From Escherichia coli (GTDB lineage: Bacteria > Pseudomonadota > Gammaproteobacteria > Enterobacterales > Enterobacteriaceae), in assembly GCF_003334385.1 (NCBI RefSeq), contig NZ_QOWN01000047.1: a DNA stretch of 34,123 bases. The stretch is one strand, 5' to 3'. Below, in pieces: positions 31,143 through 33,612 of this stretch. Each line of letters opens with the position of its first letter. Position 1 is the first letter of the stretch. The translations under genes and the position numbers were made by a program. The notes under the pieces were generated by a model. The model did not search any database. It was not told where the DNA came from and worked only from the letters and a program-made list of their open reading frames with translations.

Positions 31143-31177
31143 CTATCAATTTGTCATTTCAATTACGCGAAATTTAT

Positions 31178-32158
31178 ATGAACGCAATAATATCGCCTGA
31201 TTATTACTATATTCTTACCGTTGCTGGTCAGTCTAATGCCATGGCGTATGGCGAAGGACTGCCATTACCGGACAGGGAAGATGCGCCTCATCCCAGAATT
31301 AAACAATTAGCGAGATTTGCGCATACGCATCCCGGAGGCCCGTCATGTCACTTTAACGACATTATTCCACTGACTCACTGCCCACACGATGTTCAGGATA
31401 TGCAGGGTTATCACCATCCTCTGGCAACGAATCATCAAACACAGTACGGCACCGTTGGCCAGGCACTGCATATAGCACGGAAATTACTGCCCTTTATTCC
31501 TGATAATGCAGGGGTTCTCATCGTTCCGTGTTGCCGTGGCGGATCGGCTTTTACCGCGGGCAGCGAAGGGACATATTCAGAACGGCACGGAGCCAGCCAT
31601 GATGCTTGTCGTTGGGGAACGGATACTCCGCTATACCAGGATTTAGTCAGCAGAACGCGAGCCGCACTGGCAAAAAATCCGCATAACAAATTCCTCGGCG
31701 TATGCTGGATGCAAGGCGAATTTGACTTAATGACCAGTGACTACGCGTCACACCCTCAACACTTTAATCATATGGTTGAAGCCTTTCGTAGGGATCTAAA
31801 ACAATACCATTCTCAGCTTAATAATATTACTGACGCACCGTGGTTTTGCGGCGATACCACCTGGTACTGGAAAGAAAATTTCCCTCATGCGTATGAAGTT
31901 ATTTATGGCAATTATCAAAATAATGTTTTAGCCAATATTATTTTCGTCGACTTCCAGCAACAAGGTGAAAGAGGACTGACGAACGCGCCTGATGAAGACC
32001 CGGACGATTTAAGCACGGGATATTACGGTTCAGCGTACCGGTCACCGGAGAACTGGACGACGGCACTGCGAAGCAGTCATTTCAGCACGGCAGCCCGTCG
32101 GGGGATTATTTCTGACAAGTTTGTAGAAGCAATTTTGCAGTTTTGGCGCGAAAGGTGA
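31178..32158 (+). CDS. nanS: Probable 9-O-acetyl-N-acetylneuraminate esterase NanS
   Basis: ORF 31151-32158 (TTG-initiated in the track); ATG at 31178 (MNAIISPDYYYILTVAGQSNAMAYG) gives 326 aa with SGNH-like GQSN motif. Confidence 0.85.
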   Translation: MNAIISPDYYYILTVAGQSNAMAYGEGLPLPDREDAPHPRIKQLARFAHTHPGGPSCHFNDIIPLTHCPHDVQDMQGYHHPLATNHQTQYGTVGQALHIARKLLPFIPDNAGVLIVPCCRGGSAFTAGSEGTYSERHGASHDACRWGTDTPLYQDLVSRTRAALAKNPHNKFLGVCWMQGEFDLMTSDYASHPQHFNHMVEAFRRDLKQYHSQLNNITDAPWFCGDTTWYWKENFPHAYEVIYGNYQNNVLANIIFVDFQQQGERGLTNAPDEDPDDLSTGYYGSAYRSPENWTTALRSSHFSTAARRGIISDKFVEAILQFWRER

Positions 32159-32165
32159 GCGTTCA

Positions 32166-32816
32166 TTAATTTGATTTATTCGCATCCATCAGCGCTTTTA
32201 ACTGCTCCGGCGTAAACGGTGGTTTGCGTCGGTGCAACATCGCATGGCAATTAGGGTACACAGGCAGCAAATCATTAACTGGATCCAGCTGGTAATCCTC
32301 TTTGATGGCTGACAGCGGCACCAGGTGATGCACATGGATAAAGCCTTCAGCGATATCACCATAGATCTTCACCAGATCAACACCGCATACGTTGCACTGG
32401 CATCCATGATGTTCGACCGCTTTATCTCGGGCCTTTTTATCGCGTTCATAGCGGTTTACTGTCACCTTTATCGCCGCACCTTCAAGGTATGTCTCCTGCG
32501 ACGGCAACTCATCCGGGAACAGAACGTCGGCTATGGGAGCCGCAGCGGCTTTATCCAGATGAATATGAAATCCCTGCTCTATGAGTAGCTTGACACATTT
32601 AGATTTTATTCCGCCGGTGAAATCCGCAGGGGTAAATTGCGTCCCCGTCATCAATGTCGCTGCGATGCCAGCAATCGCCTTCGAGGGGTAACGTCGGCCA
32701 TGATATTCAATCTCATACAACCGCGCAGGCTGGAACTGATGAGTTTCTCCCGCATCCCATAAATGGATAGCTTCGATGATATACCGCCGCGGAAGATGAT
32801 CAGGGAGTTTATTCAT
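32166..32816 (-). CDS. HNH endonuclease with N-terminal putative modified-DNA (possibly phosphorothioate) sensing domain; candidate type IV restriction enzyme
   Basis: 216-aa ORF. C-terminal HNH signature read directly: CQCNVCG ... HVHHLVP ... NDLLPVYPNCH. N-terminal about 120 aa contains RRYPSKA (Y-P-x-x-A), reminiscent of the sulfur-binding cavity of SBD domains; the SBD assignment is inference. Confidence 0.6.
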   Translation of the reverse strand: MNKLPDHLPRRYIIEAIHLWDAGETHQFQPARLYEIEYHGRRYPSKAIAGIAATLMTGTQFTPADFTGGIKSKCVKLLIEQGFHIHLDKAAAAPIADVLFPDELPSQETYLEGAAIKVTVNRYERDKKARDKAVEHHGCQCNVCGVDLVKIYGDIAEGFIHVHHLVPLSAIKEDYQLDPVNDLLPVYPNCHAMLHRRKPPFTPEQLKALMDANKSN

Positions 32817-32919
32817 GGAGAATGTCCTTATACGTTCTCAGAACAGGCAGCAAAAAAACAAATGAGATCAAGGTAATATATCTTCACTTGCAGGCTTGAA
32901 CAGCAGAAAATTTGCGAGC

Positions 32920-33138
32920 ATGATCGCAATTATTTCACTGCCAGGGATATCAATAGCTTCCAGTAAATCGCTACAGCAGGCAATTGCCAATATAAAAATC
33001 TGGCACAAGGGTGAACAGCGCGCGCCGCATAAGCCATTGTTATTGCTATACGTATTAGCGGGATACCTGAATGGACATCCGCGCCTTTTCGATTATTGTA
33101 GTGGAACTGTCTACGAGGATGCAGTTCGAAGTGAGTAA
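32920..33138 (+). CDS. Hypothetical small protein (possible gene remnant), divergent from the HNH gene
   Basis: ORF 32896-33138 (TTG in track); first ATG at 32920; no recognisable domain. Confidence 0.25.
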   Translation: MIAIISLPGISIASSKSLQQAIANIKIWHKGEQRAPHKPLLLLYVLAGYLNGHPRLFDYCSGTVYEDAVRSE

Positions 33139-33161
33139 GTAAAGGTTGCTGGAAACGATCA

Positions 33162-33380
33162 ATGCCGCCATACAATGATTTTTTAGGATCAACAATGAGT
33201 AATAAAAACTACGAAAGTCACCGCAAAGCGATTGTTAGTAAAGGTATACCACCCGCTCTATTAAATAGGCTCACCAATTCGGATGTTCAGGTGATCAATA
33301 CCTTCTTAACACGAGTGAGCAAACTGGAACTATCTCAACAAGAGAAAGACTGGATCATAAAAATCATCTCTATGGTTTAG
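33162..33380 (+). CDS. Hypothetical small protein
   Basis: 72-aa ORF; an internal ATG preceded by AGGA would give 61 aa; different frame from the preceding ORF; no recognisable domain. Confidence 0.25.
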   Translation: MPPYNDFLGSTMSNKNYESHRKAIVSKGIPPALLNRLTNSDVQVINTFLTRVSKLELSQQEKDWIIKIISMV

Positions 33381-33581
33381 ACAATTTCAGCCTTGTAGCC
33401 TTTCAAGGGTTTTGTGTGGGTACAAACATTATCGAATCGGGGTATAGCCGCAGCTGTAGCTGTATCCACATCAGTAAGTTGATGTAGGTTGACTTAGGTT
33501 GAGCGAAAAATAGCGAAAAGCCTTGTGTGGCGCGGATTTCAGTCATAAAAAAACGTCCGTTGATGTCTATTGATGTTCCGA

Positions 33582-33612
33582 TGGTGCGAAGGTGCGAAGG
33601 CCGGACTCAAAC
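33582..33612 (-). repeat. Degenerate copy of the tRNA-Leu (leuX) 3-prime end; putative island attachment-site remnant
   Basis: Minus-strand read GTTTGAGTCCGGCCTTCGCACCTTCGCACCA matches the T-arm/acceptor 3-prime end of leuX (GGTTCGAGTCCGGCCTTCGGCACCA) with one deletion and an 8-nt tandem duplication; no complete tRNA is present. Confidence 0.55.

Follow-up and report, generated by a model that had tools for sequence, protein, structure and literature searches.

The stretch of E. coli DNA analysed here (34,123 nucleotides, hereafter the window) contains, divergent from a gene for an HNH endonuclease, two short open reading frames, and the question raised by this locus is whether they are the remains of one decayed gene, small partners of the nuclease, or two unrelated sequences. 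The ORF list confirms the layout given in a preliminary description: both ORFs are present, they diverge from the HNH gene, and their frames differ (coordinate modulo 3 of 1 for ORF1 and of 0 for ORF2), with 23 nt between the stop of ORF1 and the ATG at 33162. ORFs of this length are statistically unremarkable, the last 3.1 kb of the window being overlapped by 35 ORFs of at least 30 aa. As detailed below, ORF1 is a chimera, composed of a non-coding leader, codons 1-48 of a nuclease gene and about 13 codons reaching into the relic of a small gene; ORF1 and ORF2 together are ordinary genomic-island debris and not a partner pair of the HNH nuclease, and the region 32817-33380 is in all likelihood a scar left by recombination in the variable stretch that separates nanS from the leuX genomic-island site.

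Table 1. Features of the locus and of the related operons in other genomes (coordinates are those of the window unless a locus number is given).
Feature	Position	Strand	Description or basis
nanS	31151-32158		Intact in the window and in EH41
HNH endonuclease gene	32166-32816	-	216 aa, intact, WP_001037966.1; ORF, annotated in identical loci
Divergent intergenic region	32817-32952	.	Separates the HNH gene from the restriction-gene stump; GC 39.7%
ORF1	32896-33138	+	80 aa from TTG; 72 aa from ATG at 32920
Non-coding 5′ extension of the mechanical ORF1	32896-32952	+	In intact homologues the coding sequence begins at the counterpart of 32953
Pseudogene stump, codons 1-48, of an EcoWI-like SBD-HNH phosphorothioate-dependent restriction endonuclease	32953-33096	+	Homology to the intact gene
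3′ relic of a small signal-peptide gene (members in phrog_4641)	33097-33189	+	Fused in frame to the stump
ORF2	33162-33380	+	72 aa; or 61 aa from ATG at 33195
ORF2 proper	33195-33380	+	61 aa, WP_000066585.1, phrog_25874; homologues, profile match, selection
Weak terminator-like hairpin	33391-33418	+	CCTTG-N8-CAAGG, then GTTTTGTGTG; consensus scan only
leuX-island end relic	33478-33612	-	Similarity to the leuX region of E. coli W
Relic of a transcriptional-regulator fragment	~33752-33880	-	Annotation transferred from EH41
Relic of a DUF4942/methylase-subunit fragment	~33856-34005	-	Annotation transferred from EH41
Recombinase/signal-peptide/ORF2 operon	L024:1745-2738, L025:4203-5177, L018:1-948		
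Last two operon genes only (signal-peptide, ORF2)	L023:4792-5186, L026:4804-5186		

The window is E. coli chromosome, and its nanC-nanM-nanS genes lie where the leuX island site has its far end. By megablast, the segment 32160-33700 has matches in 3842 of 5426 complete E. coli genomes, the top one being strain EH41 (NZ_CP045213), which is 99.9% identical across the whole segment and 100% identical over 32817-33700. The annotated order in EH41 is nanC, nanM, nanS, the HNH endonuclease (minus strand), a partial "restriction endonuclease" pseudogene, remnants and a CP4-type island with DUF957, CbtA/YeeU and antirestriction genes; the two relics on the minus strand within 33752-34005 stand ahead of these CP4-type island genes, which lie just past the window end. 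Most other strains carrying the HNH gene, the restriction-gene stump and ORF2 have nanS annotated as partial and as a pseudogene (L002, L004, L009 and L010 among others). The block nanC-nanM-nanS′-HNH-stump-ORF2 is found also on E. coli plasmids of 94-185 kb (L005, which is pMTY18781-2, plus 22-34 other plasmid places), where AbiEii/DUF4942/CbtA island genes come after it.

The product of the HNH gene gives a weak match to Pfam HNH at residues 140-196 (i-E 0.006) and matches PHROG HNH families with E-values down to 3e-7; its N-terminus matches positions 29-91 of the PADLOC mREase_IV model PDLC03662. Positions 95-231 of the same ScoMcrA-type model are matched by the EcoWI-like protein that is encoded divergently in other strains (L003:4794-5666), and in terms of these profiles the modules of ScoMcrA look as if they were split between the divergent HNH and EcoWI-like genes, one of which is often decayed in E. 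coli strains. In the window, a perfect palindrome, TTGCGA-N6-TCGCAA, occupies 32912-32929, inside the spurious 5′ extension of ORF1; on either strand it scores as terminator-like, and it may serve as an operator.

The first part of ORF1 derives from this EcoWI-like gene. The ORF had been described as lacking any recognisable domain; instead, residues 25-68 match positions 2-45 of the NCBIfam model NF045808 (PT-DNA_restrict, phosphorothioated DNA-binding restriction endonuclease) with an E-value of 1.7e-16. The score of 60.2 bits, obtained over positions 2-45 only, lies below the curated cut-off of 180 bits for this model of about 284 positions, and ORF1 is thus not a member of the family, whereas the protein of strain S87 reaches 438 bits over positions 2-284. 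At the same locus, S87 carries an intact nuclease gene of 290 aa beside the HNH gene, without ORF2; the stump is about 99% identical at the nucleotide level to this 873-bp gene (L003:4794-5666), and the identity ends exactly at 33096, corresponding to codon 48. Since the first codon of the intact gene corresponds to 32953, the preceding part of ORF1 (32896-32952) is a non-coding extension. The start codon of the stump is ATA in the window and ATG in the intact gene; among 13 truncated copies, only the window, L001, L002 and L006 have the change, most other truncated alleles having ATG. In identical loci PGAP annotates the stump as a partial pseudogene, "missing C-terminus".

The remainder of the nuclease was searched by tblastn in 32800-34123, using the 290-aa protein of S87 and the 291-aa protein of E. 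coli W: nothing was retrieved past approximately residue 54, and the C-terminal HNH catalytic domain of the EcoWI-like gene was not found within this interval. The similarity past nuclease residue 48, up to ~54, is a chance match across the junction. As no further nuclease piece is present in any frame, a frameshift is excluded. The stretch after 33096 was also considered as a divergent nuclease allele, given the resemblance of "YCSGTVYED" to "YGSEIYEP", and this was rejected because the homology of the stretch is to a small signal-peptide gene, at its 3′ end.

EcoWI is an SBD-HNH enzyme of 33.4 kDa (Lutz et al. 2020, PMC7461809), which cuts GpsAAC/GpsTTC at N7/N6 and restricts dnd+ plasmids (PMC7461809; Yang et al. 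2022, PMC9521924). The 291-aa protein WP_000199891.1 of E. coli W, which adjoins the leuX integrase and has a computed mass of 33.41 kDa, is taken here to be EcoWI on the basis of the enzyme name and mass; the S87 allele is 76% identical to it. In E. coli W the gene for this phosphorothioate-dependent endonuclease comes directly after leuX and the integrase (L021:9874-12518), which represents a second position for the gene family within the same island region. The likeness of the stump to EcoWI consists in its being the 5′ end of the gene whose intact S87 form has the high NF045808 score; however, it lacks the HNH domain, most of the SBD and the start codon, and cannot work as EcoWI. Unlike the E. 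coli W gene, it lies at the nanS side and divergent from a second HNH gene, not beside the integrase. The N-terminal 87 residues of the SprMcrA SBD are required for phosphorothioate-dependent activity (Lutz et al. 2020, PMC7461809); judged by its 48 codons, the stump would not be expected to support cleavage of this type.

The tail of ORF1 has a different source. Indeed, 33109-33189 corresponds to the last 27 residues of small proteins from Citrobacter, Enterobacter and a prophage (tblastn, 63-70% identity, E-values of 2e-9 to 2.5e-8 against the whole window), and 33110-33379 is 81% identical at the nucleotide level to L018:681-950, a prophage-like contig of IMG/VR in which a 72-aa signal-peptide gene (phrog_4641) is followed by a homologue of ORF2. 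The window retains the order small gene-ORF2 of the phrog_4641 loci, whose proteins have 64-74 aa in Citrobacter, Enterobacter and the prophage contig, and in the window, as there, the ribosome-binding site of ORF2 is embedded in the 3′-terminal part of the small gene. Unlike those genes, the relic is devoid of the signal peptide and the N-terminal half, and it contains two in-frame stops, a TAA at 33136-33138, which ends ORF1, and a TAG at 33184-33186. What is left is the last 27 codons and not a full-length ORF of 64-74 aa with an N-terminal signal peptide; the phrog_4641 HMM no longer detects the relic. The in-frame joining of the two relics of ORF1 is accidental.

The junction between them, TTCGATTAT|TGTAGTGGAAC, is identical in all the 13 truncated copies inspected (the window and 12 fetched loci), which indicates a single old event. 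The truncated arrangement occurs in about 750-1030 of the 5426 complete E. coli genomes, and the post-junction DNA in about 990-1030 of them, essentially once per genome and, in every copy inspected, at the nanS locus. Neither the undeleted ancestor (an intact nuclease gene, then recombinase, small gene and ORF2) nor the small gene joined intact to ORF2 was found in any of the 5426 genomes; as the undeleted arrangement was not found, we infer the donor and the exact event. This event was probably one ancient deletion or illegitimate recombination, which joined codon 48 of the nuclease gene to a point about 27-31 codons ahead of the stop of the small gene. It would have removed 242 nuclease codons, that is most of the sulfur-binding domain and the whole HNH domain, and would also have cost the small gene its signal peptide and the N-terminal half, together with any DNA between both genes. 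The two fragments are in frame by chance and, with a chance extension up to a TTG, are read as "ORF1", while the gene following the small gene in the donor element would have survived whole as ORF2, 61 aa from 33195. ORF1 is very probably a dead chimera, whose native ATG is now ATA in this lineage. The idea that the ORFs represent a decayed gene holds for ORF1 only, through truncation and fusion rather than a frameshift; ORF2 is an independent, intact gene.

The neighbouring genes vary among strains. In CP55_Sichuan the HNH gene is internally deleted and the nuclease gene is intact; in some strains an IS interrupts the HNH gene, and ORF2 is kept. ORF2 is intact in every inspected E. coli copy but one, which is cut by IS1. 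K-12 has a frameshifted EcoWI-like relic (aa 8-96, 69-92% identity) between yjhR and ythB/nanS, located at L007:8249-8515, which is approximately 4,536,248-4,536,514 of MG1655 NC_000913.3; the record has no feature there.

ORF2 also had been described as having no recognisable domain, a statement that does not apply to its 61-aa form: residues 1-61 match phrog_25874 along its full length (positions 1-61 of 61, E-value 3.7e-47, 159 bits). ORF2 belongs to this 61-position family of unknown function (PHROGs v4), with no sequence difference setting it apart, and its homologues P0125 and P0133 match the same profile; in the window it has lost the intact partner gene that usually stands upstream, and phrog_25874 is seen in islands or at the ends of prophages. 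The identical protein WP_000066585.1 is annotated as "hypothetical protein" in TOE17, A2 and 135; PGAP annotates ORF2 in some strains and leaves it unannotated in several genomes. Because homology is limited to 33195-33371, the start is placed at 33195, which has an AGGA 7 nt upstream of the ATG; according to the alignments, the ATG at 33162, giving the 72-aa form, is not the conserved start.

Homologues with 61-84% identity are present in Citrobacter, Enterobacter, Phytobacter, Serratia and the prophage contig; metagenomes contain homologues too. A scan of one genome per species retrieved Citrobacter sp. NCU1 (two copies), Enterobacter sp. JUb54, Phytobacter massiliensis, Serratia sp. DD3 and Kluyvera, plus two more matches in probably misassigned assemblies, and an exhaustive search of 1.8 billion representatives yielded small homologues at 63-68% identity. 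Five large repeat proteins (P0127, P0131, P0136, P0137 and P0140) were discarded as relatives, their scores being sums of weak tandem-repeat matches. Between ORF2 and its L018 homologue, dN/dS is 0.11; with more distant homologues synonymous sites are saturated (pS 0.79-0.96 versus pN 0.18-0.31), and among six sequences 30 columns are invariant, concentrated in SDxQVxNTFLTRVxKLEL. On the evidence of these comparisons, ORF2 is a real protein-coding gene under purifying selection across Enterobacterales. Within E. coli it is nearly invariant, which may reflect recency rather than selection. An absence of conservation for either ORF, envisaged in the preliminary description, is contradicted by the conserved relatives that both of them have.

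No match to ORF2 was obtained by tblastn in 50,697 phage records (INPHARED), and no complete phage among them carries it; scans of viral contigs added only four loci, three of which are E. coli copies of the same locus. On the prophage-like contig L018, lysis genes are near the ORF2 homologue, while the other contexts are island or chromosomal. Rfam gave no match in 32000-34123. ORF2 would still be producible in the window, translated from its own AGGA and transcribed either from the orphaned nuclease promoter or from a promoter-like site at the junction (33072-33099), the latter a weak consensus match from a scan that found 4 sites versus 2.4 expected. ORF2 is a real gene, yet its family is already catalogued and uncharacterised, and RefSeq and PHROGs cover both features.

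In L018, L024 and L025 the ORF2 homologue is preceded by the gene for a signal-peptide protein and, before this, by that for a short tyrosine recombinase (186-205 aa); the 4-nt overlaps or minimal gaps between them indicate that the three genes form an operon, conserved and translationally coupled in these other Enterobacterales (Table 1). Their products, a recombinase of 186-205 aa, a phrog_4641 protein of 64-74 aa and a phrog_25874 protein of 60-62 aa, are all uncharacterised, and the window retains only the 3′ third of the operon. The recombinase adjoins ORF2 in 3 of about 12 contexts, and many homologues have no recombinase nearby; in the other loci ORF2 stands alone or by unrelated mobile-element genes (5′ of an AAA_25 primase/helicase-like gene; after YeeR_C and Hha). 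A relationship of the short recombinases of the donor operon with FimB/FimE, both of which are encoded in the window, was considered and dropped, as tblastn gave no match at E < 1e-3.

Downstream of ORF2, the weak hairpin starts 10 nt past the stop and is absent in strains whose homology stops at 33390. Further on, 33478-33612 is 78% identical over 139 aligned columns to L021:9935-10064 of E. coli W, where leuX occupies 9874-9958. Within this relic, 33582-33612 (minus strand) represents the degenerate last ~24 nt of the tRNA-Leu gene leuX, with an internal GGTGCGAAG duplication, and 33478-33581 resembles the leuX-integrase spacer of E. coli W; ARAGORN found no intact tRNA. Homology to different strains breaks at 33608-33614, where the islands of the single strains abut, as would be expected for the relic of an island attachment site. 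All of 33097-33612 thus consists of the debris that an older element associated with leuX left behind.

Several other explanations of the two ORFs have to be weighed against this reading. That they are the halves of one larger gene split by a frameshift, as was proposed initially, agrees with their being neighbours on one strand, with 23 nt between them and a difference in frame, and with the fact that ORF1 does stem from a larger gene; however, the two intact proteins of 290 and 291 aa match only at residues ~1-54 and give nothing beyond the junction in any frame, nucleotide homology ends at 33096, translated searches found no single homologue continuous over ORF1 and ORF2, and ORF2 falls in a 61-aa family of its own, whose members begin at the equivalent of 33195, so that this proposal is scarcely credible. 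It is very improbable that the chimera is a functional new small protein, made of 48 SBD residues and a 13-residue tail: the fusion is in frame and the native ATG is kept in most truncated alleles, but in the window this codon is ATA, the tail is cut short by a nonsense mutation lying in a relic, PGAP calls a pseudogene, and 48 residues are a fraction of the N-terminal DNA-binding part of about 140. The same low probability applies to ORF2 as a chance ORF in non-coding island debris. It is short, without a Pfam or NCBIfam domain, unannotated by PGAP in several genomes, and chance ORFs of similar size are many; against this, frame, length and start are conserved at 61-84% aa identity, the dN/dS of the closest pair is low, homology is confined to ORF2, the PHROG match is full length, the helical model is confident and Rfam is empty.

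The second proposal of the preliminary description was that the divergent HNH nuclease has a small partner, immunity or regulatory protein encoded by ORF2, or by each of the two ORFs. The divergent layout beside a nuclease gene, the small, basic and helical nature of ORF2 and its occurrence in E. coli only at the HNH locus would suit such a role. This linkage within E. coli is nevertheless explained by the one shared junction event; in S87 the HNH gene lies beside the intact restriction gene without ORF2, and ORF2 persists where an IS splits the HNH gene. In other species, the homologues of ORF2 are in unrelated mobile-element contexts without HNH or PT-RE genes: none was detected by tblastn near ORF2 homologues in 12 loci, which argues that ORF2 is not the partner of the HNH nuclease. 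No co-occurrence across lineages was found, and no PADLOC model matches ORF2. The partnership is therefore highly unlikely, and the pair is best read as the truncated chimera and an independent gene.

As for what ORF2 does, its product is a basic protein of 7.0 kDa with a pI of 9.9, and the AlphaFold model (pLDDT 78.7) is all-alpha with four helices. Searches of Pfam, NCBIfam, PADLOC and PDB sequences with ORF2 were empty, the model gave no specific fold match, and no literature was found under the accession WP_000066585.1. Recombination directionality factors and other small regulators lie beside tyrosine recombinases, lambda Xis and the P4-type AlpA being examples. ORF2 resembles them in being small (61 aa), basic and, in the 3 of about 12 contexts mentioned, co-operonic with a short tyrosine recombinase; moreover, its most conserved part, IPxxLLxR-TxSD-xQVxNTFLTRV, is helix-turn-helix-like. 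In contrast with these, ORF2 is predicted to be all-alpha, without a wing, and it matched neither Xis nor AlpA nor any HTH family, whether by sequence or by fold. From its size, charge, helix-turn-helix-like conserved block and recombinase linkage, ORF2 might, with low confidence, be an accessory protein of integrative elements, small, basic and helical, that binds nucleic acid or has a regulatory role. A more specific proposal, which we consider doubtful, is that ORF2 and the signal-peptide protein (phrog_4641) constitute an undescribed accessory module, coupled translationally to short tyrosine recombinases of ~190-205 aa at the ends of enterobacterial integrative elements, with ORF2 as a DNA-binding controller of the recombinase or of the element.

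These results settle the annotation of the locus: ORF1 is not a gene, ORF2 starts at 33195, and no small partner accompanies the HNH gene at this locus. They also show that the EcoWI-like gene at the nanS/leuX junction decayed by different routes in many E. coli lineages. The biological interest lies in the role of the conserved 61-aa protein and in its source operon of recombinase, signal-peptide protein and ORF2; if the proposal of an accessory module were true, ORF2 would be a new small all-helical directionality or regulatory factor, still active as an orphan in about one fifth of E. coli strains.
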